33,409 bases of DNA. It comes from a virus. Lineage: Duplodnaviria > Caudoviricetes. The stretch spans positions 1 through 33,409 of IMG/VR virus record IMGVR_UViG_3300037839_000771; one strand, 5' to 3'. The notes under the pieces are model-generated. The model was given only the letters and a program-made list of their open reading frames with translations. It was not told where the DNA came from and did not search any database. The position numbers and the translations under genes are program-made. Shown piece by piece: positions 1 to 24,766 of this stretch (position 1 is its first letter; each line of letters begins with the position of its first letter).

Positions 1-1447
1 ATCTTACGATAAGATCGCAGGTCTTTTCAAGATCTAGCCAGTTTTTAATTTCTAGCATATTCACTGCCGAAAGAATACACATCCCAATTTCGCCATTTTT
101 ATCATGATAATCATTTAATGGAATAGTAGGATGAATCACTTCTGTACAGAGGTTGCTCATTGTGACTTTATCTAACCAAGCGCCATGATTATTTGCATGA
201 TCAACATTAAGTATATAAATCCTTCCAGTTTCGACTCGTTCTTTTATTATAAGAGAAAACAATTTGCGCGCAGAAATTTTCTTTTTAATTTTTAATTTTT
301 TAGATTCGCATTCCTTATACACTTTATCAAAATCTTTAGTACCCCATGCTTCATATAATTCTGGTACTTCTGCATTGTTAAACAAGATAACATCTTCATC
401 TTTTAAAACTCTATCATAGAATAACTTACTCATCCCAACCGTATAATCTAATTTACGAACCCTATTATCATCTGTACCAGCGTTATTTTTTAATACAATT
501 ATATCTTCAATTTCGTAATGCCACCATTGAATATTGCAAGTAGCACTTCCTCCTCTTAATCCATTTTGTTGCCAAGCTTTAACGCTACTTTCATAAATTT
601 TTAAAAATGGAATTAAACCAGTATGTACCACTTCTCCATTCTTTATCGGTGATCCAACTGCTCTAATTTTACTTACATCTATTCCAATTCCACACCTATT
701 AGCTGTAGCCATACTTACAGCAGTTGCGCTAGCCGTAATACTTTCCCTAGTGTCATCAACTCCTATCAAGCAGCAACTAGCGTAGTTTTTGCTACTTGTT
801 CTAACCCCAGCCATTATTGGAGTTGGTAAGTTTATTTTATGTTTGCTGATAGCGTCATAAAATTTTCTGACATAAGAAAGTTTTGTTTCTGCTGGGTATT
901 TAGCAAAAGAGTATGCGGCAATTAGTATATAAGCAAATTGTGGAGTTTCATAAATTTGATTTGTGGTTCTATTTTTAATTAAATATTTATCGCAAAGCTG
1001 TTTTATGCCAGCGTATGTAAAAATAAAATCTCTATCGTGATCAATAAATTCACCAATTTTATTAATTTCATCTTCCGAATAATCTTTTAAAATACTATCA
1101 TCATAAATTTTATTTTTAATATTTTCTTTTAAAAATTCAGATAGTCTTGGTGGGTGCTTGCCTTTCCATACATCTTTTCTCAATTGATAGCTTAAAAGTC
1201 TAGCTGATACGAATTGATAATTTGGTTTTTCAATAGAAATTAAATTGGCTGCGCTTTCAATCAAAAGACTATGTATCTCTTTACTCGATACTCCATCGTG
1301 AATATTTATTTTTGCATTAATTTCAATGTCAGTTAAACTTACCCCAGAATAACCATCTATCGCCCAATTAATTACCCGATTGATCTTTTCAATATCAAAT
1401 TTTTCAGTTGATCCATTCCGCTTTTTTACATTTATATATTTACTCAT
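1..1447 (-). CDS. nrdA: Ribonucleoside-diphosphate reductase class Ia alpha subunit, N-terminal part (runs off the window)
   Basis: Not in the ORF track; translated by hand from ATG at 1447. MSKYINVKKRNGSTEKFDIEKI (ATP-cone start), ETPQ, LPTPIMAG, YASCCLI, GIGID, QNGLRGG, ERVETGRIY and SNLCTE (thiyl-radical Cys motif), then CILSAVN. Confidence 0.96.
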   Translation of the reverse strand, partial: MSKYINVKKRNGSTEKFDIEKINRVINWAIDGYSGVSLTDIEINAKINIHDGVSSKEIHSLLIESAANLISIEKPNYQFVSARLLSYQLRKDVWKGKHPPRLSEFLKENIKNKIYDDSILKDYSEDEINKIGEFIDHDRDFIFTYAGIKQLCDKYLIKNRTTNQIYETPQFAYILIAAYSFAKYPAETKLSYVRKFYDAISKHKINLPTPIMAGVRTSSKNYASCCLIGVDDTRESITASATAVSMATANRCGIGIDVSKIRAVGSPIKNGEVVHTGLIPFLKIYESSVKAWQQNGLRGGSATCNIQWWHYEIEDIIVLKNNAGTDDNRVRKLDYTVGMSKLFYDRVLKDEDVILFNNAEVPELYEAWGTKDFDKVYKECESKKLKIKKKISARKLFSLIIKERVETGRIYILNVDHANNHGAWLDKVTMSNLCTEVIHPTIPLNDYHDKNGEIGMCILSAVNMLEIKNWLDLEKTCDLIVR

Positions 1448-1569
1448 ACTTACTGTGAGTATAAGTTTACAGTATTTTTAAAAATTATAAAAGAAAATTT
1501 TTACTGTTGTTAACAATACTTTTAACTCACTTTAGATATGTGTACAGAATCTCTAATCTCTTATTAATT

Positions 1570-1650
1570 ATTTTCCCAATGAGCTCTTGCAAAGCGAAGC
1601 TTTCCCTGTATTAGAGGGTCATTTCGAGCTAACTGATCCATTTTCCCAAT
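1570..1650. repeat. 11-bp direct repeat ATTTTCCCAAT at 1570-1580 and 1640-1650
   Basis: Exact copies 70 bp apart, followed by GAG and TGAG respectively. Confidence 0.85.
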
Positions 1651-1810
1651 TGAGTCTATAAGCCTTTCGGCTCGCCTAACACTTATCGGATGTCGGTAGG
1701 ATCATCCATCGCGCGTTAGCCCTTGCACCTACACTCCCTTAATTTCTTAAGGTTTCTCGGGTCGCAAGCTTCGTTAGCGTTGCCCGACGTTTCGGATCAG
1801 TTCAAACTCA
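1570..1810 (-). ncRNA. Putative structured RNA (5' leader of nrdA or stand-alone ncRNA), family unassigned
   Basis: 1621-1800 is 49% GC by hand count (88/180) versus 15% in 1861-1920. No ORF of 60 aa or more. Long-range stem 1631-1639/1794-1802; hairpins CCUUAA-GAAA-UUAAGG (1737-1752) and AGCC-GAAA-GGCU (1661-1672) have GNRA loops only on the minus strand; further stems are present. Confidence 0.7.
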
Positions 1811-1864
1811 CTATTTTTAGAAAATAGCAAAACTTTGTATTATTTTACTAATACTATATGATGT

Positions 1865-1893
1865 ATACTATCTATTATTTTTTTGTTTGTCAA
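1865..1893 (-). promoter_or_regulatory. sigma70-like promoter towards the structured RNA and nrdA
   Basis: Minus-strand TTGACA (1893-1888), 17-bp spacer, TAGTAT (1870-1865). Confidence 0.65.
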
Positions 1894-1914
1894 TTCTATT
1901 TTTTATGTTATAAT
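1887..1914 (+). promoter_or_regulatory. sigma70-like promoter of the glycan island, probably giving a leaderless transcript
   Basis: TTGTCA (1887-1892), 16 bp, extended -10 TGtTATAAT (1906-1914). The ATG at 1921 is 7 nt after the -10 box. Confidence 0.7.
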
Positions 1915-1920
1915 TACTAA

Positions 1921-2682
1921 ATGTTTAGTATATATAGTTCAGCTTTTAATCTTATTAAGAATAACTTCAACTATATTGAATCTATTAATAATTTTTGTAG
2001 CTTCGCAGATGAAGTAGTAATAGCAGTAAACAAGTCAGAGGATAATACTTTTGAAGCGTTAAAATCATTGAATTTAAATAATTTAAAATTAATTGAAACT
2101 GACTTCTCTTATCAAGACCCGTTATTAGATGGCAAAATTAAAAATAAAGCTTTACAAGCCACAAAAGAAGAATTTAAAATTGGATTAGATATGGATGAGT
2201 ATATTCCATTATGGCAAAAAGACATTTGGACTAATCTAGCATATCAATTAAGGTTTGATATTTATGATTGTTATATGATACCTTCGCTTAATCTTTATAA
2301 AGATAAAGATCACTATTTTTTAATAAATCATAAGTGGTACTTGCATAAAGGAAATCTTTTTAGAGGTGCAGTTAATTTTGCTAAAAACCCAAATGGAACA
2401 GTAGATACCTCAAGAAGCGATACATGTGAATTAATAGACTCAAATGGAAATTTAGTACCATCTAAAATGTTTGATAATGATATAAACTCGCTAAGGTCTA
2501 AAATAGTTCCATTTGTAGTTCATAATGGATATTTGAATCTGCAAGATAGAGTCTTAAGGAATAAGAATTTTTGGAAACAGCATTGGAAAATTGAATCTGG
2601 CGGAACCGAACCAGCTCATAAAGTCCATGAATTTTTAGAAGATTTTTCAGAAAGATATTATCAACACAATTTAGATATATGA
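1921..2682 (+). CDS. Glycosyltransferase, GT2-like (GT-A fold)
   Basis: DEVVIAVNKSEDNT (GT2 D..S.D.T-like region) and DxD-type GLDMDEY. Confidence 0.7.
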   Translation: MFSIYSSAFNLIKNNFNYIESINNFCSFADEVVIAVNKSEDNTFEALKSLNLNNLKLIETDFSYQDPLLDGKIKNKALQATKEEFKIGLDMDEYIPLWQKDIWTNLAYQLRFDIYDCYMIPSLNLYKDKDHYFLINHKWYLHKGNLFRGAVNFAKNPNGTVDTSRSDTCELIDSNGNLVPSKMFDNDINSLRSKIVPFVVHNGYLNLQDRVLRNKNFWKQHWKIESGGTEPAHKVHEFLEDFSERYYQHNLDI

Positions 2683-3692
2683 AAGTTGCTTTAATAGCAA
2701 ATGATTATGTACAACAATTCCCATTAGAAAATTATGGAGGAATTGAAACTTGCGTTGAAAATTTAGCTCAAGGTTTATTTGATAATAAGATTGACTTCTT
2801 TGTTGTCTGTCCTAAAAGAAAAGATAAAAAAGAATACCCTTTTGAGGTTTATGAAACAGAAGAAGAACCAACATCATTAAGTAATAAGAATAGTTCATAT
2901 TATGCCTACTCTGTGGCGAAAGTTTTAAAAAATTTAAAATTTGATATAATTTGGAGTCAAAGTCATTGGAGTATCAGTCCTCTTTTATTTTTTAAAAAAC
3001 CAATCATTTCTACATTTCATGATAGTTGCGAAAAACAATATGGATGGATGAAAGATTTAGATAAGGTCAAATATAGATTTATTTCTAATTTTCAATACAA
3101 TAACTGGGTTAAAGAAGAATGGGAAAAAGAAAAAAGCTTCATGTGCTATACAGGTCTAGCAGATTCAGAATTTAAATTAAATGAATCAAAAAAAGATTAT
3201 TTTCTATGGTGCGCTGGATTAAACTGGGGATTGGACGCGAAAGGATTAGATATTTTTATAAAATTATCAGAAACTTTTAAAGATAAAAATTTTGTTGCGT
3301 ATGGAGCTGGCAATAAACAATTAGAAGAGTATCTTTTAAATAAAAATAAAACAAACTCTAATTTTTTATATAAAGGCAAACTAAACAGAGGCGAGGATCA
3401 TCAATTAGTATTTTCTAATGCTAGAGCATTTTTCCTTCCGACCAGACTACCAGAAGCATTTGGAAGAACCGTTATAGAAAGTTTTTCTAAAGGTACCCCA
3501 GTTTATGGTTCAAATAACGGAGCACTAAAAGAATTAATAAAAGACAATATAAATGGGTTTAAATTTTGTTTAGAAACTTTAAGCTTGAATTTAGACTACA
3601 GTTTTAATTATAAGAAAGTATTCGAATCATCATATATATTTAACATTTCCGAAGAAATAAAAACCTTATTAAAAGAAAGTAATAATATATGA
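2679..3692 (+). CDS. Glycosyltransferase family 4 (GT-B)
   Basis: MKVALIA..P...YGGIE N-terminus, KG motif, EAFGRTVIES..GTPV (EX7E), ELI.DNINGF. Confidence 0.9.
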   Translation: MKVALIANDYVQQFPLENYGGIETCVENLAQGLFDNKIDFFVVCPKRKDKKEYPFEVYETEEEPTSLSNKNSSYYAYSVAKVLKNLKFDIIWSQSHWSISPLLFFKKPIISTFHDSCEKQYGWMKDLDKVKYRFISNFQYNNWVKEEWEKEKSFMCYTGLADSEFKLNESKKDYFLWCAGLNWGLDAKGLDIFIKLSETFKDKNFVAYGAGNKQLEEYLLNKNKTNSNFLYKGKLNRGEDHQLVFSNARAFFLPTRLPEAFGRTVIESFSKGTPVYGSNNGALKELIKDNINGFKFCLETLSLNLDYSFNYKKVFESSYIFNISEEIKTLLKESNNI

Positions 3693-4393
3693 AATATATA
3701 AACAACGTAACGCTTTTAACAATTCTTGGTAATTCAAATCCATCTCTGAAAGAGAACTATCATTTAATGAATAAAATAATAGATTCTTCTTACGATAAAT
3801 TGAGATTTAATAATATAAAAATATTATCTGCTCAAAATGAATCGTTTGACTTTAAAGAAAAAAATGTATCAATTGTAAATATTAATCCAATGTCACAAGC
3901 GGGATATAACGCCTTTTGTGTTAACGAATTATATAAATACGTAGACACGGAATTTGTATTGCTTTTTCAAAATGACGGTTTTATTTTAAACCCTCAACAT
4001 TGGTCAGATGATTTTTTAAATTATGATTATATTGGAGCACCTTGGCCAAACCATGAAAAATCTAGAGTTGGAAATGGTGGATTTTCATTTAGAAGTAAAA
4101 AGTTTTTAAATGCGACCAAAGATCTAGTTTATTTAGAAAATATTGGACTATCTGGAGGGGTATGCACACCAGAAGATCATCTATTATGCAGATATTATTA
4201 TGATCATTTAATAAAAGCTGGCATAAAATTTGCCCCAGTTGATGTAGCTATTAGATTCTCTTTTGAACAATTTATACCAGAATATCCTTTTTGGAATAAT
4301 GATATGTCACTAGGATTCCATGGTTTATTTCAAACAGGATGGGATAATGATGAATTTAGATTAAATGTAAAAAAGCAATATAATCTATTATGA
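3689..4393 (+). CDS. DUF5672-like putative glycosyltransferase
   Basis: QNDGFILNP..W.DDFL.YDYIGAPW, VGNGGFS.RS, PED and GFHG motifs. Confidence 0.8.
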   Translation: MKYINNVTLLTILGNSNPSLKENYHLMNKIIDSSYDKLRFNNIKILSAQNESFDFKEKNVSIVNINPMSQAGYNAFCVNELYKYVDTEFVLLFQNDGFILNPQHWSDDFLNYDYIGAPWPNHEKSRVGNGGFSFRSKKFLNATKDLVYLENIGLSGGVCTPEDHLLCRYYYDHLIKAGIKFAPVDVAIRFSFEQFIPEYPFWNNDMSLGFHGLFQTGWDNDEFRLNVKKQYNLL

Positions 4394-5358
4394 AAGTAGC
4401 TTTTTTCAATCATCAATTATGCATTAGAGGGTCTACTGTGTCTTTATATAATTATGCAGTAGCTAATCAGAAATTACTAGGGAACGAATCAATTGTAGTA
4501 TATATGGCTGACGCAGAAAATATTAATCACACAGACCCTACTGTATTAGAAAAATTTAATAAAACATTTAAAACTAAAGGATTTGATAATTGGGATAGTC
4601 TAGATGAGTACCTAAAAGAAGAAAAAGTTGATGTACTTTTTAAAAGTTGCGGTGGATGGAACGATAATAAAGTAAGCAAATATGCAAAGACATGTGTCCA
4701 AGCAATTTTTGATATATATCAACCCCACGGAGATGTATATTCATATCTTCACGAATATATGTCAAACAAAATGACAGACGGCAAAGCTCCACATGTCTAT
4801 GGTATTTGTGATTATCTTCCAGAGCCTAATTTGAATTTAAGAGAAATTTATAATATCCCATCTACCGCTAAAGTGTTTGGTAGAATTGGAGCAAAAGATT
4901 CATTTAACGTAGATTGCGCAAAGCATGCAATTATAGATTTAGTTAATAATACGGAAGATGTTTATTTTATGTTTTTTGGTACAGACTCTTTTTATGAGCA
5001 CCCTAGAATTATATATTTGCCAAAGTCCCATGAATATCAAGATAAGTCAAATTTTGTGGATGCTTGTGATGCAATGCTTCACGCCAGAATAGATGGAGAA
5101 ATCTTTAGTTTATCTATATCTGAATTTTTATGGTTTGATAAACCGATCATAACATTTAATATAGGGTTTCAAACTGGACATTTTGAAATTCTAAAAGATA
5201 AAGCTATAATTTATAAAGATAAAGAGTCTTTATGCTCTATTATTAAAAATTTTAATAAAAATGATTACCCTAAAAATTACTATAAATCAATCATATTAGA
5301 TAATGGATTTACAACAGATAAGGTAATGCAAAAATTTAAAGAAGTTTACTTAACTTAA
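4390..5358 (+). CDS. GT-B glycosyltransferase (GT4-like)
   Basis: RGSTVSLYNYA, VFGRIG, DACDAMLHARIDGEIFSLSISEF (EX7E), KPIIT. Confidence 0.75.
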   Translation: MKVAFFNHQLCIRGSTVSLYNYAVANQKLLGNESIVVYMADAENINHTDPTVLEKFNKTFKTKGFDNWDSLDEYLKEEKVDVLFKSCGGWNDNKVSKYAKTCVQAIFDIYQPHGDVYSYLHEYMSNKMTDGKAPHVYGICDYLPEPNLNLREIYNIPSTAKVFGRIGAKDSFNVDCAKHAIIDLVNNTEDVYFMFFGTDSFYEHPRIIYLPKSHEYQDKSNFVDACDAMLHARIDGEIFSLSISEFLWFDKPIITFNIGFQTGHFEILKDKAIIYKDKESLCSIIKNFNKNDYPKNYYKSIILDNGFTTDKVMQKFKEVYLT

Positions 5359-6161
5359 TGAACCTAACAATAGACCGCTCAAATCGTTTAGCAAATCAAT
5401 GGTGCTGGGAATGGCACTATATTATGAATATTTTTAGAGAATTAGAAAAAATTGATTCAAATAACTATCAGTATGTATTTACAGACAACTTAGAAACGCT
5501 CCCAATTGAACCAAATAATAATACAGTAGTTTTTATTGTTTCTGACGAACGTTATACTATCCCAAAATACGCAGAAAAAATTAAAGCTATTTTTAAAAAT
5601 TACGTTCTTCCAGAGCAAGAGGCTTTAAATATATATCCTATTCCACAAGGCTACAATAAAGATTTAATTTTTTATCCATATAAAAATATAGAAGAAAGAG
5701 CTCACGACATAAGTTTTCAAGGAAACTTTCATACATCGAGACCAATTGTTATTCAAGGCATTCTTGATGAAATAAATAAAAGAAATTTACAATTAAATAT
5801 TCTATTAAATCAAAGCTCAAATACGTTTGATTATTCTAATAATTTATGGAATACAAAAATTTCATTATCACTAGACGGTCAAATTACTCCAGAAAACTTT
5901 AGATTTTTTGAATCAAGTATTTTAGGATGCGCAATTATTGCCTCTAATAATTTACCAAAAAATTGGATATATGATCAAAACCATTACATAAAAGTAGACT
6001 GGAAGAATTCAAAAGAAGTTGTAGATAACATAGAAAATTTATTAAGAGATAAGGGGTTACTAGAAAGACTTTCAATAAGATCCTACAACGCATGGAACAA
6101 TTTATACAATCCAAAAAACGTGGCATTATATATAACCAATAAATTGAAAGAAATAAAATGA
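5358..6161 (+). CDS. Putative glycosyltransferase (exostosin/GT47- or CgeB-like GT-B C-terminal domain)
   Basis: DISFQGN...R, TKISLSLDG, FRFFESSILGC. Paralogous to 6747..7556. Confidence 0.6.
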   Translation: MNLTIDRSNRLANQWCWEWHYIMNIFRELEKIDSNNYQYVFTDNLETLPIEPNNNTVVFIVSDERYTIPKYAEKIKAIFKNYVLPEQEALNIYPIPQGYNKDLIFYPYKNIEERAHDISFQGNFHTSRPIVIQGILDEINKRNLQLNILLNQSSNTFDYSNNLWNTKISLSLDGQITPENFRFFESSILGCAIIASNNLPKNWIYDQNHYIKVDWKNSKEVVDNIENLLRDKGLLERLSIRSYNAWNNLYNPKNVALYITNKLKEIK

Positions 6162-6757
6162 ATACTAAAATTAAAAAAACGCTATTAGAATATGGGCATA
6201 AAGGAATAATTACGAACAAAGGATATTTCCAATGCTTAACAGATAAAGCTGCTTTATACGCGCAAATTGGTCATTCATATGAAAATGCATATCCTCATCT
6301 TTTAGAAAGATTTCTTGAAAAAGAGGAGTTTAATATGCTTGAACTAGGAATTCATAAAGGGTACAGTTTAGAGATGTGGGCTAAAATATTTCCCCAAGCG
6401 AACATTTATGGGCTAGATTTTGATCATTCTTTAATTGACCCATACGCAAATTTAAATCAAAAAAATATTAAAATATTGCCACAAGCAAGTCAAACTGATC
6501 CCAGCATTTTAAATTTTATACCAAATATGGATTTGATAATAGATGACGCTTCACATGAACCAAATTTAACAATTAAATCTTGGGAGATTTATAGAAATAA
6601 ATTAAATAAAAATGGTTTATATATTATTGAAGATGTACCAAGCAGCATTTTTGATGAGGCTATTTTTCCAAAATTATTTAAAGATAATTTTAAATTAATA
6701 GACTTGAGATCAATAAAAGGTAGGGATGATGATATAATTTTATATTATGAAAATTAA
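6158..6757 (+). CDS. Class I SAM-dependent methyltransferase (sugar O-methyltransferase-like)
   Basis: HSY...Y, LELGIHKGYSL..W, IYGLD, DLIIDDASH, GLYIIED. Confidence 0.85.
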   Translation: MNTKIKKTLLEYGHKGIITNKGYFQCLTDKAALYAQIGHSYENAYPHLLERFLEKEEFNMLELGIHKGYSLEMWAKIFPQANIYGLDFDHSLIDPYANLNQKNIKILPQASQTDPSILNFIPNMDLIIDDASHEPNLTIKSWEIYRNKLNKNGLYIIEDVPSSIFDEAIFPKLFKDNFKLIDLRSIKGRDDDIILYYEN

Positions 6758-7556
6758 ATATTCAATGCCAGACAATCCAAGGATTGTTAGCCAATTTAAT
6801 AATTTTCCATTTGGATGTGGAGAAATAAAAAATTTTATAGATATCTGTAGAGAAATTCAATCAATTAAAAATATAGATAATACTATTTGGTATGCTGATC
6901 CAGATTATAATTCTCAAAACGCACCAGAAGGTTTATCAAAAGAAGATATAGTTTTTTACAAAGGAGATGAACACTACAGGATTCCCTCTTGGCATAAAGA
7001 TTGTAAATTAATTTTAAAACATACCGTTCGAAATGATTTCCCAGAAAATATTATACATATACCGTTTTTGTATACTTCAGATTGCATAAGATTTCCATAT
7101 GTTCCATTTAACAACAGAAAGATAGACGTATTCTTTACTGGGACTTGCTGGCCAGAAACTAATAGAAAATTTATTATAGATTACTTAAAATCAAAACTAA
7201 AGGGAGTAAATTTTATTCTTGGCGATTTCATAAACCCCAAAGAATATTATTATATTTTAGCAAATACTAAAATTTCTTTATGTTTAGATGGCAAATGGAC
7301 TCCAGAATGTTATAGATTTTCAGAATCAGTACAAGCAGGATCATTAGCTTTTTCTTCTGATTTGTCTTATTCAAAATTATTTGATAATTGCCCCTACATA
7401 AAAACTGATTGGTCTAATCTAGATCAAGTCATAGATCAAATATATTTTTACTTAACAAGTAAAGATTCTGAAGAAATTTCAATATGCGCTCATGATTTTT
7501 GGCAAAATAAGTGGCATCCCAAGAAATGGGCTGAATTAATTTTAAGTAAAATTTAA
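6747..7556 (+). CDS. Putative glycosyltransferase (exostosin/GT47- or CgeB-like), paralog of 5358..6161
   Basis: DVFFTGT....NR, NTKISLCLDGKWTPECYRFSES, YIKTDW. Confidence 0.6.
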   Translation: MKIKYSMPDNPRIVSQFNNFPFGCGEIKNFIDICREIQSIKNIDNTIWYADPDYNSQNAPEGLSKEDIVFYKGDEHYRIPSWHKDCKLILKHTVRNDFPENIIHIPFLYTSDCIRFPYVPFNNRKIDVFFTGTCWPETNRKFIIDYLKSKLKGVNFILGDFINPKEYYYILANTKISLCLDGKWTPECYRFSESVQAGSLAFSSDLSYSKLFDNCPYIKTDWSNLDQVIDQIYFYLTSKDSEEISICAHDFWQNKWHPKKWAELILSKI

Positions 7557-8506
7557 TGATAATCGCTAAAACACCATTTAGAATTTCACTAGCGGGAGGA
7601 TCTACAGATCTTGAATCTTTCCTAGATTTATATGGACAAGGCTCTGTTATAAGTTTTCCTTGTAATCTTTATACATACATAACAATTTTTGATGATAAAT
7701 TAGGCCTTAATTCTTATGATAAGAAATACATTATAGCGTACTCTAAAAGAGAGGCAATTAATCAGGTAGATAAGATAAAAAATGATATAGCGCGAATTAT
7801 TTTAAAAAAATACAATATAGCCCCAATTAATGCTACATTCAATTCTGATATATTCAGCTCAAATTGCGGGTTAGCATCATCAAGCTCTTATACATTATCA
7901 TTTTTAAATGCCATTTTTAAATTCAAAGGATTGAATTATTCCGATGTTGATCTATGTAAAGAGGCTTTAGCTATAGAAAGAGAATTTAACCCGTTAACTG
8001 GACAACAAGATATATTTGGATGCGGAATAGGTGGATTCAAAAAAATTGACTTTTTTAAAGATAAAAACCCAACATTTAAATATCTTAATTCAGATATCTT
8101 TGATAGATATGACTTTAGCTTAATATATACTGGAGTATTAAGATCTTCAACTAATATATTAAAACAAATAGATTCAAGAAAATCATTCTCATTACTTAAT
8201 CTAGTACAAGAAATGGAAATAGCTATAGAAAAGAACAGACACAAAGATTTCATATCTATTATTAAAGAAGGATGGATAAAGAAAAAAGAATCTAATCCTA
8301 ACATTATAGCAGATAAAGTGGTTAAAAAAATTGATCAAGATATATCAAATGATAAGTCTATTCTAGCTCATAGATTATGTGGGGCTGGAAACGGTGGGTA
8401 TTTTCTTATAATAAAAGAGAAAACATCAAAAATAAATTTGAATACTAGCTCTAATATTATTAATATATCTTATGATAAAGAAGGATCAAGATCCTACAGG
8501 TTTTAA
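7556..8506 (+). CDS. hddA: GHMP sugar kinase, D-glycero-D-manno-heptose-7-phosphate kinase-like
   Basis: TPFRISLAGGSTD, GLASSSS, E....GQQD..GG, LCGAGNGGY. Adjacent to a SIS isomerase. Confidence 0.85.
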   Translation: MIIAKTPFRISLAGGSTDLESFLDLYGQGSVISFPCNLYTYITIFDDKLGLNSYDKKYIIAYSKREAINQVDKIKNDIARIILKKYNIAPINATFNSDIFSSNCGLASSSSYTLSFLNAIFKFKGLNYSDVDLCKEALAIEREFNPLTGQQDIFGCGIGGFKKIDFFKDKNPTFKYLNSDIFDRYDFSLIYTGVLRSSTNILKQIDSRKSFSLLNLVQEMEIAIEKNRHKDFISIIKEGWIKKKESNPNIIADKVVKKIDQDISNDKSILAHRLCGAGNGGYFLIIKEKTSKINLNTSSNIINISYDKEGSRSYRF

Positions 8507-9020
8507 AAATAGCATTAATTTAATCAATAGAATCACAGCAAAAATAACTAATGCCGAATTAGTTGATTTTCGTCAAATATTTTATGATTATGATAATATT
8601 ATTATCATAGGAAATGGTGGTAGCAATTCAATAGCTAGTCATATTGCAGTAGACTATAATAAGTTCCTTAAAAAGAAGACGCTTGCGTTTACCGACGCAT
8701 CAATGCTAACTGGATATTTTAATGATTATGGCCTTGAACAAGTATATGTGAAATTTATTGAACAAAATTTAACTAAAAAAACTTTAGTAATACTTATATC
8801 TTCATCTGGAAACTCATTAAATATTTTGGAGTGCGCAAATTTTTGTGAAAAAAATAAAATAGCTTTTTGTTCTTTGACTGGTTTTAATAAAAATAATAAA
8901 GTAAAAGTAAAATCTGAAAAATCTAAAAACTGTAAGTTCAATTACTGGGTGGATTCAAAGAGCTACGGAGTCGTGGAGAATTGTCATCAAATATTCTTGC
9001 ATGCAATTGTGGTAAATTAA
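8472..9020 (+). CDS. gmhA: Phosphoheptose (sedoheptulose-7-P) isomerase, SIS domain
   Basis: GNGGS..IASH..D, LT...ND.G, ISSSGNS.NI, LTGF, YGVVE..H...LH. Confidence 0.85.
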   Translation: MIKKDQDPTGFKNSINLINRITAKITNAELVDFRQIFYDYDNIIIIGNGGSNSIASHIAVDYNKFLKKKTLAFTDASMLTGYFNDYGLEQVYVKFIEQNLTKKTLVILISSSGNSLNILECANFCEKNKIAFCSLTGFNKNNKVKVKSEKSKNCKFNYWVDSKSYGVVENCHQIFLHAIVVN

Positions 9021-9021
9021 T

Positions 9022-10350
9022 ATGAGATATTGTCTAGACCTAGATAATACAATCTGTATTACTCCTAGAAATGAATATGAAAAATCAACAATAATAGAAA
9101 AAGCTAAAAATTTAGTTAATAAATTATATCACAATGGAAATTATATTATTATAAATACAGCAAGGGGCGCGTCTTCTGGTATAGATTGGACAGAGTTTAC
9201 AGAAAAACAATTAGCTGATTGGGGAGTAAAGTACAACGAGCTTGTTACAAATAAAAAACCTAATGCAGACATCTTTATTGACGATAAGAATATGTCTATA
9301 GAAGAATGGTATAATTCCGATAAATTTCCTAAAGGATTCATTGCGGGTACATTTGATATAGTCCATAATGGATATATTAAATTCTTTGAATTTGCAAAAG
9401 AACATTGTAATAAATTAATGGTTGCGGTACATGAAGACCCATCTTTAGAAAAAAACGAGAAAAGCAAACCAATTCATACTTTAGAAGAAAGAATGGAAAT
9501 CCTTAAATCAATTAAGTATATAGACGAAATTTTTATATATCAAACAGAAGAGGACCTTCACGAATTAATAAGATTAATGAAACCAAGCGTAAGATTCTTG
9601 GACGAAACTTATAAAAATAAAAAAATAACAGGCGAAAAATTATGTCCAATCATATATCATGAGAGAAAGCATGACTACTCTTATACAAATTTAAGAAATA
9701 AAATTCTTGGTGGCGAAGCGTTAAATAACAAAATAAATCAAATTATTCTAGACTTAGTAGAAAAAGATAATCAAAACATTGATCTCCCCAATCAACTGCC
9801 CAGCGAAATTTTAATAAATTCTTTTATTGATAGCGCAATATCTAATATTACAGTTAAAGACGGTTTGATTTTAGAGTTTGGAGTTTATCAAGGTAGAACA
9901 ATAAATTATATAGCCTCAAAATTTCCAAACAATACAATATATGGATTTGATTCATTTGAGGGGCTTCCAGAAGAATGGAATGATAAAAATCCAAAAGGAA
10001 TTTATACATTAAATGGCAATCTACCTAAAGTTGAAAAAAATGTTGAATTAATTAAAGGATGGTTCAATGAAACATTGCCTTCGTTTATAAACGATCATAA
10101 GAGTCCAATTTCATTGTTACATGTTGATTGTGATATTTATTCATCTACTGTATGCGTTTTAGAATCATTAAAAGATCAGATCGTAGATGGTACAGTAGTT
10201 ATATTTGATGAAATTTGGAAATACCCAAATTATAAAGAACATGAAATAAAAGCTTTTGCAGAATTTCTTTTAAAATATAATTTTAAATATGAATGCATTA
10301 GAACTCTCAAGTCAAGATATGCGAAAGGAATATTTATATTAAAAAAATGA
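9022..10350 (+). CDS. Three-domain fusion: HAD phosphatase + cytidylyltransferase-like nucleotidyltransferase + TylF-like SAM methyltransferase
   Basis: aa 1-~98: DLDNT, TARG, KP.ADIFIDD. aa ~103-230: GTFDIVHNGY, KP...EER...L.SIKYID. aa ~275-442: LEFGVYQG, GFDSFEGLPE, KGWFNETLP, HVDCDIYSST, VIFDE. Confidence 0.85.
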   Translation: MRYCLDLDNTICITPRNEYEKSTIIEKAKNLVNKLYHNGNYIIINTARGASSGIDWTEFTEKQLADWGVKYNELVTNKKPNADIFIDDKNMSIEEWYNSDKFPKGFIAGTFDIVHNGYIKFFEFAKEHCNKLMVAVHEDPSLEKNEKSKPIHTLEERMEILKSIKYIDEIFIYQTEEDLHELIRLMKPSVRFLDETYKNKKITGEKLCPIIYHERKHDYSYTNLRNKILGGEALNNKINQIILDLVEKDNQNIDLPNQLPSEILINSFIDSAISNITVKDGLILEFGVYQGRTINYIASKFPNNTIYGFDSFEGLPEEWNDKNPKGIYTLNGNLPKVEKNVELIKGWFNETLPSFINDHKSPISLLHVDCDIYSSTVCVLESLKDQIVDGTVVIFDEIWKYPNYKEHEIKAFAEFLLKYNFKYECIRTLKSRYAKGIFILKK

Positions 10351-11237
10351 AAACTAAAGTAATAGTAACAGGAGGATGTGGTTTTATAGGAAGCCATGTA
10401 GTAGATTTATTAGTAGAAAATAATTTTGATGTCAATGTAGTAGACAACGTTTCTACTTCAAAAAATAATAAATACATACATGAAAAAGCAAAGTATATTT
10501 ATTTAGACATAACAGAAGATATTGAAAAACTAAAACAAGCATTTAATGGCGCAAAATATATATTTCATTTAGCGGCTTTTGCTAGAGTAGTTCCGTCTAT
10601 ACATGATCCAATGACTTTTCACAATATAAACGTAAATGGATCTTTAAACGTTTTCTTAGCGGCAAAAGAAGTTGGAGCAAAAGTTGTATTTTCTTCATCA
10701 TCATCTGTATATGGAAACCCAATAGAATTACCAGTAAAAGAAACTCATAGACTAGATTCAATGTGTCCGTATGCACTTCACAAGCAGATAGGTGAAGAGT
10801 ATCTTGAATTATTTAATAAAATTTATTCTTTGAATAGTGTTTCTTTGCGTTATTTCAATGTTTTTGGAGAGAGAGCCCCAAGAGAGGGAGCTTACGTCCC
10901 AGTAGTAGGAATATTCTTAAGACAAAAAGAAGCTGGAGAACCATTAACTATAGTTGGCGATGGACTTCAAAATAGAGATTTTGTACATGCAAAAGATGTA
11001 GCGAGAGCAAACCTAGCCGCAGCCTTAGATGAAAGAAATGGGGCATTTATATATAATGTTGGTTCTGGAAAATCGTTATCAGTAATAGAAATAGCAAATA
11101 AAATTTCAAAAGATACAATTCATATACCAGAAAGATTTGAATATAAAAGCGCAAGAAGCGACGTTAGTAAAATTAAAGAAGAATTAAATTGGGAATATAA
11201 AATAGAACTTATGGACTGGTTAGATTCATACGTATGA
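10347..11237 (+). CDS. NAD-dependent nucleotide-sugar epimerase/dehydratase (extended SDR)
   Basis: VTGGCGFIGSH, HLAA, SSSSVYG, YALHK (YxxxK), LRYFNVFG, GDGLQ.RDF. Confidence 0.93.
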   Translation: MKTKVIVTGGCGFIGSHVVDLLVENNFDVNVVDNVSTSKNNKYIHEKAKYIYLDITEDIEKLKQAFNGAKYIFHLAAFARVVPSIHDPMTFHNINVNGSLNVFLAAKEVGAKVVFSSSSSVYGNPIELPVKETHRLDSMCPYALHKQIGEEYLELFNKIYSLNSVSLRYFNVFGERAPREGAYVPVVGIFLRQKEAGEPLTIVGDGLQNRDFVHAKDVARANLAAALDERNGAFIYNVGSGKSLSVIEIANKISKDTIHIPERFEYKSARSDVSKIKEELNWEYKIELMDWLDSYV

Positions 11238-11872
11238 AAATATTATTTTTTATTACAATGCATAGGCAATTAGATGAATTAAAAATATATTCATATTTTT
11301 TCAATAAATTTAATCATATTAAAAATTTTGATATATTTATTTACAACACTAATAAAAATATTTCCGAGCAAATGGTTCGCAATAATTTAAACTTAAATAC
11401 GAAGGTGTATGTTCATTGCGATACTAATAATGAAGGATATGTTTTAGGGCTTTTTTCTGGATTAAGTCAAAATTATGATTTATATAGAGAATATGATTTT
11501 ATTGTTCACTTGCATCCAGATGTATTTATTTTAGACGATAAAAAGCTATATGAACTTTTAATTGATCAAAAAGATAAAGATATAGATTTTCTTGTTTCTC
11601 AAGTAGTCGAAGCGCCATTCGCGTATTTAACAGATTTATTTATATTTAAACCAAAGAATAATTTTATATCAAAATATATAAATTATCGAAATCTTGATTC
11701 AGCAGAAAAAATATTATTCTCAATAATAGAAGGCAATAATTTAAAAAAATATTTATTCTCAAGATACCCTAATGACGAAATAGGCGGTAAAAATAGAGAA
11801 ATAGATGAATATAATATATGGCACGAACATAAATTAGAAAATGTACTAAATTATATTCATAATATTAAATGA
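11234..11872 (+). CDS. Hypothetical protein, possibly GT-A-like
   Basis: ATGA-coupled ORF in the glycan island. N.GY..G and YDFIVHLHPDV resemble the GT-A DxD region. Confidence 0.45.
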   Translation: MKILFFITMHRQLDELKIYSYFFNKFNHIKNFDIFIYNTNKNISEQMVRNNLNLNTKVYVHCDTNNEGYVLGLFSGLSQNYDLYREYDFIVHLHPDVFILDDKKLYELLIDQKDKDIDFLVSQVVEAPFAYLTDLFIFKPKNNFISKYINYRNLDSAEKILFSIIEGNNLKKYLFSRYPNDEIGGKNREIDEYNIWHEHKLENVLNYIHNIK

Positions 11873-12645
11873 AAGTAATCGACTGCTTCCTATTCTCTAA
11901 TGAATTGGATATGCTTGAAATCCGTTTAAACGAATTAAATGATAAAGTAGATAAATTTTTAATTTGCGAATCAAGAGAAACTTTTGCTGGGAAACCTAAA
12001 GAATTGGTATATGAAAAAAATAAAGATAGATTCTCCCAGTTCGAAGAAAAGATTATTCATTTAGTCGTTGAAAAGTTTTCAGGCAGTGCTTCAGCAGAAA
12101 ATAGAGAATATTTTAATAGGAATTACATTCTAAATGGCGTACCAGATTCGTTTAATAATGAAGATATAATTATATTTTCAGATGTAGATGAAATCCCTAA
12201 GATAGAAAATCTTGACAAATCCCTAGACATCGCTGTTTTTAGACAAGATATGTATTATTTTAATTTTAATAGTAAATTTACAGAACCAAATGATCACGCA
12301 AATTGGCATGGATCAATAGCATTTAAAGCTAAATTTAAAAATAAATCAAACCTACAGAACATTAGATTTAATAGATACAATATACGACCAGTAATAATTG
12401 ATGGTGGGTGGCATTTTTCTTATTTTAATGACGTACATAACGTAATTAATAAAATCAAAAATGGAGGACATACTGAAATGCTTCATTTAGATTTAGATGA
12501 AAAACTAATTTCTGAAAGAATTAAAAATAGAATTGATGTTCTTGGTAGAGATGGTTATCTTTTAAAAGAAATAAAAAATAATCAAGATTTGCCTAAATAC
12601 GTTTTAGATAATAAAGAAAAGTATAAACATTTATTTTATGAATAA
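11869..12645 (+). CDS. Glycosyltransferase family 17-like (beta-1,4-GlcNAc transferase/MGAT3-like)
   Basis: DCFLFSNELDMLEIRLNEL...VD.F...ES..TF.G.PK, SDVDEIP, GGWHFSY. Confidence 0.88.
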   Translation: MKVIDCFLFSNELDMLEIRLNELNDKVDKFLICESRETFAGKPKELVYEKNKDRFSQFEEKIIHLVVEKFSGSASAENREYFNRNYILNGVPDSFNNEDIIIFSDVDEIPKIENLDKSLDIAVFRQDMYYFNFNSKFTEPNDHANWHGSIAFKAKFKNKSNLQNIRFNRYNIRPVIIDGGWHFSYFNDVHNVINKIKNGGHTEMLHLDLDEKLISERIKNRIDVLGRDGYLLKEIKNNQDLPKYVLDNKEKYKHLFYE

Positions 12646-13303
12646 TCTATTTATTGATATTGGAACTCATATGGGTGGTGGGCTGTTTAATTTTATTAAC
12701 AAATATAATATGACTAACCAAGATTGGGAAATTCATACGTTTGAGCCGCATCCATATTTATTTAAAACTGCTGGAGAAAATAACACAGAAAGACAAATTG
12801 GATATCCTCATTCATTTAAAGACATGAACGAATCGTTAAAACTAATACCACAAATAAATAGGCATAATGCTGCATGCGCAGATTTTGATGGGGAAGTAGA
12901 TTTATTTTTTGATAAGGGTCTTGAAGAGAATCACATGGGTAACACCATAGTAAAAGATGTATATGAAAATCCTGTTTTTAAAAATTATGATTTCAATAGA
13001 AGTTCATACATAAACGCTCCAGTTAAAGTAAAATGCATTGATGTATATAATTTTATAATGAATATTACTACATCTAAAAAAATAAACAATTTAATAATTA
13101 AAATCGATGCCGAAGGAGCAGAATTTTCAATTCTAAATAAATTTATTAAATCTGAATATAAAAATATTTTTGACGTAGATCATTGCAATATATATTGTGA
13201 ATTTCATCATTTTATGCTTAAAAATCCAAATGAATATCCATCTGTAGATTCATATAGAAATGAATTAGATAAGAAAGGAGTCCAACTTCATCCTTGGGGT
13301 TAA
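12638..13303 (+). CDS. FkbM-family SAM methyltransferase
   Basis: FIDIGTHMG, HTFEP.P, HNAA, KIDAEGAEF.IL, EFH. Confidence 0.85.
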   Translation: MNNLFIDIGTHMGGGLFNFINKYNMTNQDWEIHTFEPHPYLFKTAGENNTERQIGYPHSFKDMNESLKLIPQINRHNAACADFDGEVDLFFDKGLEENHMGNTIVKDVYENPVFKNYDFNRSSYINAPVKVKCIDVYNFIMNITTSKKINNLIIKIDAEGAEFSILNKFIKSEYKNIFDVDHCNIYCEFHHFMLKNPNEYPSVDSYRNELDKKGVQLHPWG

Positions 13304-13305
13304 TT

Positions 13306-14301
13306 ATGAAAAAACTTTTAATAACTGGCGGAGCAGGAATGATAGGTTCTATTTTAGCTAGATATTTTATTGATAAAAAATATCAAGTAATTATTCTAGA
13401 CGATTTAAGCGGTGGATTTATAGAGAATATTCCTAGTGAAGCAAAATTTTATTTAGGAAATATTTGCGATCAAAATTTCATTAATAAAACTTTTGAAATT
13501 GAAAAGCCCAATTTTGTAATTCATTGTGCAGCTTACGCAGCAGAAATACTTAGCCCTTTTATAAGGAATTATAATTATCAAAATAATTTAATCGGATCGG
13601 TTAATATTATCAATGCATGTATAAATAATGATATTGAGAAAATTGTCAACTTCTCTAGTTTTGCTACTTATGGGGAAGGGAAGCCTCCATTTAAAGAATC
13701 TGATTTAAGAGATCCAAAAGATTGTTATGGAATAGCTAAACTAGCAGTAGAAATGGATTTAAAAGAAGCACACGAACATTTTGGATTAAGATATTCAACA
13801 ATACTGCCGCATAATGTAGTTTCTAAGTATCAAAATTATTGGGATAGATATAGAAACGCAATAGCCATATGGATTAGACAATGCTCTCTTGGGGAAGATA
13901 TTACTATATATGGAGATGGTTTACAAACAAGAGCTTTCTCTGATTGTAAATTTTTATGCGAACCAATCGAAAAACTGCTTTATTCTTTTGATAATAATTT
14001 TTATAATATTGGATCAGATAATCCAATCACAATTAAAGATGCATCAGAGTTAGTATTAAAAGTCGGGACAGAGTTTGGATTTAATAAATCTAAATTAATT
14101 TTTCTTGAAAAAAGAAAAGAAGTAGTTCATGCTTACTGCGATCACGAAAAAGCTAAAAAAGAATTAAATTTCCAAGATGATACAGATCTAGAGAGCTTAA
14201 TAAAAAACATGTATATTCATTACTTGTCTTTTCCAGAAAAGAAAGTTGAATACATGAAATATGAAATAGAAAAAAATATGTATAGTTTCTGGAAAAAATG
14301 A
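13306..14301 (+). CDS. Second NAD-dependent epimerase/dehydratase (extended SDR)
   Basis: LITGGAGMIG, DDLSGG, HCAA, YGIAK, GDGLQTRAF. Start placed at ATG 13306 rather than TTG 13294. Confidence 0.9.
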   Translation: MKKLLITGGAGMIGSILARYFIDKKYQVIILDDLSGGFIENIPSEAKFYLGNICDQNFINKTFEIEKPNFVIHCAAYAAEILSPFIRNYNYQNNLIGSVNIINACINNDIEKIVNFSSFATYGEGKPPFKESDLRDPKDCYGIAKLAVEMDLKEAHEHFGLRYSTILPHNVVSKYQNYWDRYRNAIAIWIRQCSLGEDITIYGDGLQTRAFSDCKFLCEPIEKLLYSFDNNFYNIGSDNPITIKDASELVLKVGTEFGFNKSKLIFLEKRKEVVHAYCDHEKAKKELNFQDDTDLESLIKNMYIHYLSFPEKKVEYMKYEIEKNMYSFWKK

Positions 14302-15389
14302 AATATGATTTTTTAATAGTTGGATGTGGTTTATTTGGAGTAACCTTTGCCCAGCAAGCAAAAGAAAAAGGCAAGAAATGCTTAATTATTGATTCTAGAA
14401 ACCATATTGGTGGAAATATTTATACCGAAAATAAAGACGGTATTAATATTCATACATATGGCCCGCACATATTTCATACAAATAATGATGAAATATGGAA
14501 TTACGCTAATAGATTTACAAAATTTAATCACTTCATTAATAGACCAAAAGTAAACTACAAGGACAAGCTTTATTCATTTCCAATTAATTTGTTTACTTTA
14601 TATCAGCTTTGGGGAATAAAAACTCCAGAAGAAGCTAAATTAAAATTAGATTCAGTTAAAGTTAGAATTGAAGAGCCAAGGAATCTAGAAGAGTGGATTT
14701 TGTCTCAAGTAGGAGAAGAGCTTTACTATACTTTTATTCATGGATATACAAAGAAACAATGGAGCAAAGAGCCCAAAGATCTTCCTTCTTTTATTATAAA
14801 AAGACTACCAATTAGATTAAATTTTGATGATAATTACTTTTTTGATAAATACCAAGGCATTCCAATTGGTGGTTATACTAAAATTATAGAAAATATGACC
14901 GAAGGAATAGAAGTAATATTAAATGAAAATTATTTTGATAGAAGAGATTATTGGAATCAAAAAGCTGATAAGGTTATTTTTACTGGTAAAATAGATGAAT
15001 TCTATAATTATAAATACGGAGAATTAGAATATAGATCTCTAAGGTTTGAGGAATTTAAATTAAATATAAAAGATTATCAAGGTAATGCATACATTAACTA
15101 TACAGATGAAAGTGTTCCATATACGAGAATAATAGAGCATAAGCATTTTGAATTTGGACAGCAAGATGTTACTTATATTACCAAAGAGTACCCAGAGAAT
15201 TATATTAAAGGGGAGAATGCTCCATATTACCCTATAAATAATGATAAAAATAATGATCTATATAAAAAATATAGACAAATGAGCGAAAAAGAGAATAATA
15301 CATTATTCGGAGGAAGACTAGCAGAATATAGATATTATGATATGCATCAAATAATTGGATCTGCACTACAAAAAAGTAAAAACGTATAA
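14298..15389 (+). CDS. glf: UDP-galactopyranose mutase
   Basis: GCGLFG FAD site, HIGGN, YGPHIFHT, GYTKKQW, YQGIP..GYT, L.YRSL, TRIIEHKHF, PYYP, GRLAEYRYYDM. Confidence 0.95.
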   Translation: MKYDFLIVGCGLFGVTFAQQAKEKGKKCLIIDSRNHIGGNIYTENKDGINIHTYGPHIFHTNNDEIWNYANRFTKFNHFINRPKVNYKDKLYSFPINLFTLYQLWGIKTPEEAKLKLDSVKVRIEEPRNLEEWILSQVGEELYYTFIHGYTKKQWSKEPKDLPSFIIKRLPIRLNFDDNYFFDKYQGIPIGGYTKIIENMTEGIEVILNENYFDRRDYWNQKADKVIFTGKIDEFYNYKYGELEYRSLRFEEFKLNIKDYQGNAYINYTDESVPYTRIIEHKHFEFGQQDVTYITKEYPENYIKGENAPYYPINNDKNNDLYKKYRQMSEKENNTLFGGRLAEYRYYDMHQIIGSALQKSKNV

Positions 15390-16531
15390 TGAATACAAAT
15401 TTTATAGAAACATATCATGGCAAGAAAATAGACACTGCAAATATTTTAAATATTGAAGACGCAAGTAGACTTATCAAAGGTAGGAAAACTGTAGTAATAA
15501 CTGGAGTAACAGGCCAAGATGGAAGTCATATGGCAGATTTTCTTTTAAAAAATACTGATCTATTAATTTTTGGTGGAGTAAGAAGACTAAGCGTATACAA
15601 TCATGAGAATATCAGACACATTCAATCTGATCGATTCCATTTAATAAATTTTGATTTAACTGATTCTCACGCAATAGCCAGAACAGTAGAAAAACTTCAA
15701 CCAGATTATTTTATTAATTTCGCAGCACAAAGTTTTGTAGCAAGTAGTTGGGATTTCGCAAAACAAACATGGGCAACTAATTCTACTAGCGTTTTAGATA
15801 TACTAGAGGCCGTGAGACTTTATAAACCATCTTGCAGACTATATCAAGCTGGATCGAGTGAAGAATTTGGAAATGTACTATATAGTCCACAAGACGAAAA
15901 ACACCCATTGAGACCAAGAAGCCCATACGGAGCAAGCAAAGCAGCCTCTAGACAATTAATTAAGGTATACAGAGACTCTTATAACCTTTACGCAATTCAA
16001 GGATGGTTATTTAATCATGAAGGGACAAGAAGAGGAGAGGAATTCGTAACCAGAAAAATTACTAAAAATGTAGCAAGAATAAATAATGCTTTAAAAAATA
16101 ATGAAGAATTCAAGCCGATGGAGCTCGGGAATATGGAAGCTAAAAGAGATTGGAGCGACGCAGAAGATTTCATAGAAGGTGTCTGGATGATGTTAAATCA
16201 AGATAAATATAATTCAAATTATAATGGAGCACCAGAAGAGTATGTATTCTCCTCTAATGAAACTCATACGATTAAAGAGTTTGTTGAGAAAGCTTTTAAT
16301 ATAGCTGGAATTAAAGGTAATTGGATAGGAGAAAATGAACACAGTATGTATGTATCAAATGATAAGAAAATCCTAGTTCAAGTTAATCCTAAATTCTATA
16401 GACCAGCAGAAGTAGAACTATTATTAGGAAATTCAAATAAAGCAAGAGAAGAACTTAATTGGAAGCCAAAGATTTCATTTGACAAACTAATAGAAAAGAT
16501 GGTAACATCAGATATTGATAATTTAAAATGA
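15389..16531 (+). CDS. gmd: GDP-mannose 4,6-dehydratase (or GDP-heptose dehydratase homolog)
   Basis: ITGVTGQDGS, AAQSFV, SSEEFG, PRSPYGASK, FNHE..RRG..FVTRKI, LGN..AKRDW, RPAEV..LLG. Confidence 0.93.
   Translation: MNTNFIETYHGKKIDTANILNIEDASRLIKGRKTVVITGVTGQDGSHMADFLLKNTDLLIFGGVRRLSVYNHENIRHIQSDRFHLINFDLTDSHAIARTVEKLQPDYFINFAAQSFVASSWDFAKQTWATNSTSVLDILEAVRLYKPSCRLYQAGSSEEFGNVLYSPQDEKHPLRPRSPYGASKAASRQLIKVYRDSYNLYAIQGWLFNHEGTRRGEEFVTRKITKNVARINNALKNNEEFKPMELGNMEAKRDWSDAEDFIEGVWMMLNQDKYNSNYNGAPEEYVFSSNETHTIKEFVEKAFNIAGIKGNWIGENEHSMYVSNDKKILVQVNPKFYRPAEVELLLGNSNKAREELNWKPKISFDKLIEKMVTSDIDNLK
16479..16508 (+). promoter_or_regulatory. Possible internal sigma70-like promoter at the end of gmd
   Basis: TTGACA (16479-16484), 18 bp, TGgTAACAT ending at 16508. 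Confidence 0.4.
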
Positions 16532-17160: not shown

Positions 17161-17165
17161 TTTTA

Positions 17166-17510
17166 ATGCAAAAAAATACAAATCATAAACTCTGTCAGTT
17201 TATAATTAAAAAATATATTAATCAAAAAGTAGACTGGCCAAGAGAAATTAAAATAGCTCAAAAATTAATTAAAACCTATAAAGGGTATTCTTTTTGGAAC
17301 GGACTCAAGCCTGCTAACCTCCCTAGTTTAGCGTTCTTTTTGACAGAAGATGGTAAGAAATTTATAGCTATGGAAAAAATCAAAGATAATCTAGAGCTAG
17401 ATAAACCGATTAAATTCGAAATACAAGAAATAAAAATTGGTGAAGATAAAAAAGTTTGCAAAAAACCTAAAAGCCTGTTAGAATTTATAAACTATGGGAA
17501 GAAAACCTAA
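17166..17510 (+). CDS. Hypothetical protein
   Basis: 114-aa ORF filling the gap before the recombinase on the coding strand. Confidence 0.7.
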   Translation: MQKNTNHKLCQFIIKKYINQKVDWPREIKIAQKLIKTYKGYSFWNGLKPANLPSLAFFLTEDGKKFIAMEKIKDNLELDKPIKFEIQEIKIGEDKKVCKKPKSLLEFINYGKKT

Positions 17511-19055: not shown

Positions 19056-19061
19056 GTGTAA
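19056..19061 (+). promoter_or_regulatory. GTGTAA box 9 nt upstream of a start codon (candidate phage-specific promoter)
   Basis: Same hexamer and same 9-nt spacing as upstream of the minus-strand gene starting at 32871. Confidence 0.45.
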
Positions 19062-19070
19062 AACTTTATA

Positions 19071-19343: not shown

Positions 19344-19346
19344 AAC

Positions 19347-19375: not shown

Positions 19376-19384
19376 ATAGATTGA

Positions 19385-24765: not shown

Positions 24766-24766
24766 A

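Follow-up and report, generated by a model that had tools for sequence, protein, structure and literature searches.

What does the gap between nrdA and the divergent glycosyltransferase cluster that begins at 1921, on its other side, encode? Within the window (the whole stretch of 33,409 nt analysed) this gap had been described in an initial annotation as a GC-rich island free of ORFs, and so it proves: the GC content of 1621-1800 is 48.9%, the window as a whole having 29.2%, and the ORF list contains no ORF of at least 50 aa between 1447 and 1921. The gap very probably encodes a real, stand-alone structured RNA gene, the elements of which, together with its neighbours on the nrdA side, are as follows.

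2..1447, minus strand: nrdA, class Ia reductase large subunit with ATP cone; runs off the window; the RNA's neighbour
1484..1513, minus strand: separate promoter-like site before nrdA, outside the RNA (11/12 match)
1570..1859, minus strand: whole non-coding RNA, ~290 nt, its ends placed at the limits of conservation; 85 unique full-length homologues
1570..1587, minus strand: box 2, the 3' end of the conserved unit
1595..1602, minus strand: PK1 pseudoknot, 3' strand; can alternatively form a hairpin with the box 2 lead
1604..1618, minus strand: P7 hairpin of variable length (85% paired)
1626..1639, minus strand: P1 closing helix, 3' strand (covariation in both alignments)
1640..1657, minus strand: box 1, with a 3-nt lead, 4-nt spacer and 10-nt purine-rich tail
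1661..1672, minus strand: P6 GAAA hairpin, longer in types 2-5
1676..1719, minus strand: P4/P5 arm, whose loop (1696-1700) is the PK2 3' strand (helices 100% and 95% paired)
1728..1732, minus strand: PK2 pseudoknot, 5' strand, almost invariant in type 1
1737..1752, minus strand: P3 hairpin (99.4% paired, 4/5 pairs change on both sides)
1757..1787, minus strand: P2 arm, comprising a stem, a CAA/A internal loop, a short stem and the loop that is the PK1 5' strand (100% paired)
1766..1773, minus strand: PK1 pseudoknot, 5' strand (covariation)
1794..1809, minus strand: P1 closing helix, 5' strand (95.5% paired, 5/7 pairs change on both sides)
1810..1828, minus strand: H2 hairpin (100% paired, 3/5 pairs change on both sides in 32 RNAs)
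1837..1854, minus strand: H1, variable 5' hairpin (73% paired, 3/4 pairs change on both sides in the 42-RNA alignment)
1865..1893, minus strand: sigma70-type promoter of the RNA gene, -35 at 1893-1888 and -10 at 1870-1865 (10/12 match)

Every helix named in the initial annotation was recovered where it had been placed, and the proposed promoter, TTGACA-17-TAGTAT, is present at 1893-1865 on the minus strand. Compared with 200 shuffles, folding of the minus strand gives z values of -2.99 for 1570-1830 and -3.10 for 1569-1859, one shuffle being equally good in each case. The plus strand is nearly as good, its folding energy likewise lying below chance (z -2.65). The minus strand, as first proposed, is therefore assigned from the conserved promoter, folding energy alone being insufficient to distinguish the two. 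A TTGAC- or TTGA-like -35 element, accompanied by a -10 at similar spacing, lies upstream of RNA types 1-4 (the types are introduced below) and a TTTACA-like -35 upstream of type 5, such that a promoter accompanies the RNA in all five types.

The conserved unit begins about 6 nt past the -10 box (~1859) and stops with box 2 (~1570), the homologues being 280-321 nt in length; 3' of box 2 the sequence is AT-rich and differs among loci. The earlier estimate of a structured RNA of ~240 nt was correct as to its nature and short as to its extent, since the unit covers ~1859-1570 and includes two additional 5' hairpins. No terminator-like site was found within 1400-2000. Transcription presumably starts from the conserved promoter, and a lake metatranscriptome provides a weak hint of it. 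A 239-nt contig, the longest of its run among the pieces listed from 21 contigs placed on window positions 1-20000 (the next is of 144 letters), matches 1582-1817 over 236 letters with 9 differences at a depth of 2.3. These data are the contigs of a single study, giving neither strand nor ends, and those parts of the window without cover in the RNA run (X24) are uninformative.

Predicted fold and covariation

From 5' to 3' the predicted elements run in the order H1, H2, P1, P2 (with the PK1 5' strand as its loop), P3, the PK2 5' strand and P4/P5 (with the PK2 3' strand as its loop), followed by P6, box 1, the P1 3' strand, P7, the PK1 3' strand and box 2. The two pseudoknots and the two matching boxes (1640-1657 and 1570-1587) are additions to the structure originally drawn. 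An alignment of 32 type 1 RNAs has 97.5% of its cells paired, and both sides change in 24 of the 55 pairs. None of 500 shuffles reaches the observed covariation, a figure to be read in the knowledge that related sequences can outscore shuffles, and slid controls pair in 35-45% of cells. When type 2 is included, giving 42 RNAs in an imperfect alignment, 85.1% of cells pair, 39/71 pairs change on both sides and, again, 0/500 shuffles do as well.

The pseudoknot PK1 joins 1766-1773 to 1595-1602 in a long-range helix of 8 bp, in which three pairs show changes in both strands and pairing is intact in 97% of cells. In all types it pairs over 6-8 bases, through many different sequences. The last hairpin of the initial annotation (1581-1601) also pairs in 91% of cells, with one pair broken in 10/32 sequences, but it excludes the better-supported PK1 and may represent an alternative form. 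PK2, formed by 1728-1732 with 1696-1700, shows changes on both sides in types 3-5, while 8/10 type 2 RNAs contain an A-A mismatch there. Additional pair changes are seen in the P2 arm in types 2-5, and the core holds invariant unpaired bases across four types.

Some further pairings were observed outside this scheme. In many type 1 RNAs (L029:2097-2143 and relatives) H2 can lengthen into a perfect stem of 15 bp, with which the base of P1 is incompatible, possibly as a folding intermediate or switch. Types 3 and 4 (L371:11037-11216, L461:2305-2482) have possible pairings of a long P3 arm with the P4/P5 junction or with the bases following P4. A third pseudoknot, possible by eye in types 3 and 4 and absent from the window's type, was left uncounted.

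Homologues and comparison with known RNAs

Among 80 nrdA-related viral loci, a type 1 copy lies directly upstream of nrdA in 22 and a type 2 copy in five. Of the others, one has a truncated piece, one (L076) carries the RNA one gene further up, and 51 have none within the available flank. Pattern scans of viral and metagenome contigs, in which most matches were false and were filtered by profile, led to 42 unique type 1 and 2 RNAs, two cut-off loci being left out. A covariance model of the RNA core was then built and run on whole records, giving exactly one strong full-length match (E <= 2e-11) in 39/54, among them the sole record with a completeness rating of 90% or more. Seven of these matches were type 1 or 2 controls; the other 32 lie away from the nrdA start and constitute types 3 and 4. 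Type 5, again upstream of nrdA, came from records picked by their capsid protein, and no type 5 copy was found besides that of L562. A profile pass over all loci matched 247, from which, with seven loci cut by contig ends left out, 85 unique full-length RNAs were obtained (32 of type 1, 10 of type 2, 35 of type 3, seven of type 4 and one of type 5). The one-copy pattern agrees in further records.

A reading of the RNA as optional, suggested by its absence before nrdA in 51/80 loci and by the result of a motif scan (13/29 records), was rejected because the covariance model located copies elsewhere in the records. The 15/54 records with no match comprise fragments with completeness ratings of 5-31% and four records selected through a glycosyltransferase; in three of these four the reductase match is a distant one. 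Similarly, 41/44 capsid-picked records have no match to the RNA, and all 13 of these that were checked lack nrdA. G013 (L074), at 55 kb, has nrdA and yet matches neither RNA model, possibly through possession of a more divergent type or through being cut off upstream. Almost all holders of the RNA come from lake and freshwater runs. Cultured phages gave no match to the type 1 RNA, the type 3 RNA or the capsid protein (the last in 50,697 phage records), their best NrdA matches being at 51-53%, and a search for hosts in a genome collection yielded two uninformative loci. The RNA has the appearance of a core gene, present once per genome, in a widespread group of uncultured lake phages.

The family went unrecognised in the initial annotation, and the Rfam covariance models do not recognise it either. 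The window has no match at gathering score and junk alone at E <= 10 (CRISPR-DR64 at 15.7 bits, symR at 15.6), and types 2-5 have no match over the RNA at gathering score or at E <= 1. No Rfam model of tmRNA, RNase P or a known ribozyme matches the RNA, while the same search detects a separate tmRNA gene at 95-114 bits. Of the two interpretations originally offered, an independent phage ncRNA is the one upheld, by the covariation, by the absence of an Rfam match and by the single strong copy per matching record; we regard it as a genuine and well-supported gene for a structured RNA of a new class. Large, well-folded bacterial or phage RNAs with no assigned job are rare and have repeatedly been a source of new biochemistry, and the present one is small enough for direct synthesis and probing.

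The nearest kind are ROOL (RF03087) and GOLLD (RF01998), neither of whose Rfam models is matched by the lake-phage RNA. As described in the accessible part of bioRxiv 10.1101/2024.12.08.627333, these are phage-borne, many-helix, pseudoknotted ncRNAs, often beside tRNA genes, and many GOLLD members exceed 800 nt, in contrast to the 280-321 nt seen here; that part describes them with no pair of identical boxes. The features in common, namely phage encoding, several pseudoknots (PK1 and PK2) and, in types 3 and 4, an adjoining tmRNA, are not distinctive alone. No paper on the RNA was found in the literature searched, most of which was judged by its listing alone. Over ten thousand candidate viral RNAs are reported in the accessible text of Fremin et al. 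2023 (PMC10690425). Six motif words from the RNA had no match in three of the six text supplements of that paper, and a fragment of the RNA may be listed in its sequence archives.

Two matched boxes and their possible partners

Each box is 17 nt long, the 4-nt spacer containing UC or UU. The 10-nt tails are identical between the two boxes in 85/85 RNAs, with 10 tail variants among the phages; the UC/UU step agrees in 85/85 and the 3-nt lead in 84/85. The boxes were masked in building a tree of 72 RNAs, and the distribution of the box variants on that tree requires at least 10 changes. Some of these changes are single bases in near-identical RNAs (L033, L050, L067), matched in both boxes, as are the A/G changes in the lead. 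In all five types the UC step is shifted by one base between box 1 and box 2. Each box follows a hairpin, the contexts being similar, and in types 2-5 both are predicted to be largely unpaired. The signal is an unusual one, of two 17-nt stretches that evolve freely yet in lockstep. Judged from the sequence comparison, box identity is as strict as that of a base-paired helix and about as fast-changing as PK1, which suggests a two-body constraint.

No consistent complement to the boxes was found inside the RNA in the types examined, nor a co-varying complement, wobble allowed, in 15 contigs (one rated 100% complete), nor, by eye, any complement in the tmRNA. The 5' loops, a T-rich motif before nrdA and the tmRNA were considered as pairing partners of the boxes and rejected, no covariation being seen. 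A recurring box-like word elsewhere turned out to be lysine-rich coding sequence on the sense strand, and a reading of the boxes as codons for tRNA binding was set aside, as any purine 10-mer permits it. Retron and DRT types include reverse-transcriptase-linked RNAs with template jumping, and the lake-phage RNA resembles them in having short direct repeats within a structured RNA. It differs in that the stretch between the repeats is structural and in that no RVT_1 reverse transcriptase domain was found in any of five long records (one rated complete) or among the 37 window proteins, by a search whose control was positive in 4/14 genomes.

Such a two-body constraint would arise if the complement of one box had to pair with the other, the simplest such complement being the template strand, the sole one found that changes automatically with the boxes. 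Our best explanation, offered tentatively and with more doubt than conviction, is that box 1 base-pairs, at the position of box 2, with the template strand of its own gene, in an RNA-DNA hybrid resembling that of ColE1. The two-pseudoknot fold would bring the two matching single-stranded boxes together, PK1 presumably drawing the 3' tail towards the junction where box 1 lies. In the folded nascent RNA, box 1 would then engage the template at that site and keep a lasting RNA-DNA hybrid open, as the ColE1 primer RNA does, the possible roles of such a hybrid being to start replication or to end transcription.

In ColE1 RNA II a stretch of rG must interact with a stretch of dC in the template for the hybrid to persist, and T4 origins use promoter-made R-loops, according to the accessible parts of PMC4412123 and PMC5043065. 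As far as those parts describe them, ColE1 RNA II and the T4 oriF/oriG R-loops involve a promoter-driven, folded ncRNA whose upstream stretch must contact the downstream template, an arrangement to be expected from matched boxes; that box 1 could pair with the template at box 2 in 85/85 RNAs is a likeness of sequence pattern. Unlike the RNA discussed here, of 290 nt with two pseudoknots, ColE1 RNA II is of ~550 nt. No RNA I-like antisense promoter was found at the locus, where the sole plus-strand promoter-like site over the 5' part (1816-1843, 9/12 match) is directed away from the RNA body. No resemblance in sequence or structure to these systems was seen, and ColE1 RNA II is used as a working analogy rather than as a family.

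Several results bear on pairing with the template. All 72 tails are predicted to favour RNA:DNA over DNA:DNA, by 0.6-3.3 kcal/mol; for the commonest tail the advantage is small (0.8 kcal/mol), and the tails rank in the top 0-50% among the RNA's own 10-mers for this preference. That each genome has one copy is compatible with a role at an origin, and the RNA's own promoter also speaks for the hybrid. Against the hybrid stands the one-base spacer offset of all five types, where simple hybridisation would favour a perfect match. Both boxes also share the A/G changes of the lead, even though rG:dT ought to be tolerated. The AT-rich sequence past box 2, different among loci, and the failure to find an RNA I-like antisense promoter likewise count against it. 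In 5/11 sequences the cumulative GC-skew minimum falls no more than ~1 kb from the RNA, gene direction switching there in all five; in the remaining six the distance is 4-92 kb; base skew follows gene direction, and third-position skew gives no origin signal. It is possible, though we would not expect it with any confidence, that a self-anchoring R-loop, made by re-pairing with the template (or directly between the boxes), opens or primes a phage origin, making this a new class among core phage RNAs. Were pairing with the template correct, the gene would encode a structured initiator RNA of phage origin, and covariation by identity would be the signature of an RNA-DNA pairing step; were it wrong, the partner or fold found instead would still define a new RNA class.

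A symmetric (dimeric) protein is a close rival. It is conceivable, if on balance improbable, that the fold presents its matched boxes to a two-fold symmetric RNA-binding protein, encoded by either the host or the phage, and acts as its sponge, its decoy or an assembly scaffold, in which case both boxes would follow any change in the preference of the protein. The strong RNA promoter would suit such a role, as would boxes that in types 2-5 are predicted to be largely unpaired in similar post-hairpin contexts, and a fixed one-base offset might be more easily accommodated by two binding pockets than by hybridisation. Duplicated protein sites, however, are usually less strictly matched than these tails, of which none is discordant in the 85 RNAs, even where single bases change between near-identical RNAs. 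Furthermore, none of 47 shared protein families (those in at least 8/16 contigs) tracks RNA type, the largest effect being 0.92 SD, in what is a coarse comparison, by RNA type only, covering phage proteins from partial contigs.

We think it unlikely that the boxes touch one another in parallel through like-with-like pairs (A-A, G-G, U-U), or join copies of the RNA into an RNA-only assembly. A contact of this kind, between two bodies, requires no third partner, and none was found. PK1 would place box 2 near box 1, and ROOL and GOLLD make RNA-only cages (accessible part of bioRxiv 10.1101/2024.12.08.627333). The offset spacer, however, would lead to unlike pairs in the middle of the boxes, and types 2-4 are without G runs for quadruplexes. 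A parallel helix of like-with-like pairs, this long and of mixed sequence, is not known from any natural RNA, which also counts against direct contact.

Both boxes might instead pair with one host RNA (mRNA, tRNA or rRNA) and change together upon a change of host or target. The display of an unpaired, purine-rich 10-mer in two places would suit seed pairing, and the host is left as the source of a target because no phage-encoded complement co-varies. This appears quite improbable, since single-base switches of both boxes between very close phages would need equally fast change in the target, and wobble should permit discordant A/G states, of which one is seen in 85 RNAs. There is an equally slight chance that the core with its two pseudoknots acts as a ribozyme or in processing, the boxes being two equivalent cleavage or joining sites. 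The compact core, with its unpaired bases invariant across four types, is compatible with catalysis, and there is no intrinsic terminator to form the 3' end. Yet no Rfam ribozyme matches even at E <= 10, no internal guide complementary to the boxes is present, and the stretch between the boxes holds the P1 and PK1 strands required by the fold.

Relation to nrdA and neighbouring genes

The next gene on the same strand is nrdA for 26/27 scorable type 1, 8/8 type 2 and 1/1 type 5 RNAs (35/36 together), seven RNAs having too little flank to be scored. For types 3 and 4 the corresponding figures are 0/22 and 0/7, with 26 of these 29 RNAs facing a gene on the opposite strand, so that homologues do not always precede nrdA. 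In 17/21 type 3 and 4 loci a tmRNA gene is found at a distance of 1.5 kb or less, mostly back to back with the RNA. In L076 a 371-aa gene separates the RNA from nrdA. In the window the conserved fold, with box 2, ends ~120 nt before the nrdA start codon, and this AT-rich interval contains the promoter-like site at 1484-1513. Similar promoter-like motifs precede nrdA in phages without the RNA there, and the motifs upstream of nrdA are still similar where a small ORF takes the place of the RNA.

Cobalamin-class riboswitches occur upstream of ribonucleotide reductase genes, and types 1, 2 and 5 likewise place a structured RNA 5' of nrdA. A ligand-sensing leader controlling nrdAB, as in the riboswitch-like alternative of the initial annotation, could draw on that arrangement, on possible read-through from the RNA promoter into nrdA (no terminator having been found) and on the mutual exclusion of PK1 and the 3' hairpin, but is very improbable in view of the types 3 and 4, whose position is not tied to nrdA and is mostly back to back with tmRNA, the intervening gene of L076, the separate promoter-like site of nrdA, the absence of a riboswitch family match in Rfam and the lack of an expression platform, with neither a terminator-like site in 1400-2000 nor a fold that extends to the start codon.

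Positions 1450-1545 (minus strand) of the window contain GTACAC, a T-rich word and TGTAA before nrdA, a set seen in phages with and without the RNA. GTACAC is kept even inside an ORF, and a TGTT-A-TAA word, which we take to resemble a DnaA box, occurs in either orientation.

The tmRNA gene is present in 12/15 contigs of the phage group (e.g. L371:10338-10725). It encodes a long, unusual tag peptide, of which there are two kinds, and has a conserved short leader that presumably resembles the antitermination boxA. A tRNA called as Ser with anticodon ACT is found in 8/15 contigs (L382:11378-11465, L409:8171-8260), and a tRNA-Ile(TAT) in G008; these are either anticodons rare for bacteria or mis-calls. 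A family of predicted membrane proteins of 320-330 aa (L374:18805-19779) is present in 5/5 type 3 contigs and 0/11 others, its gene adjoining the RNA in two type 3 contigs and lying 67 kb off in G008. An unrelated pattern match, outside the RNA family, is an apparently non-coding, hairpin-rich stretch past an ORF (L169:1400-1770).

Elsewhere in the window, DNA polymerase III alpha is apparently split (23380-27572) into a PHP-domain gene, an exonuclease gene, a 75-aa ORF and the catalytic and finger domains, a layout also found in G008. The run of sugar-modifying genes at 1921-16531 (glycosyltransferases, epimerases, UDP-galactopyranose mutase, methyltransferases, a GHMP kinase and a SIS protein) varies among relatives.
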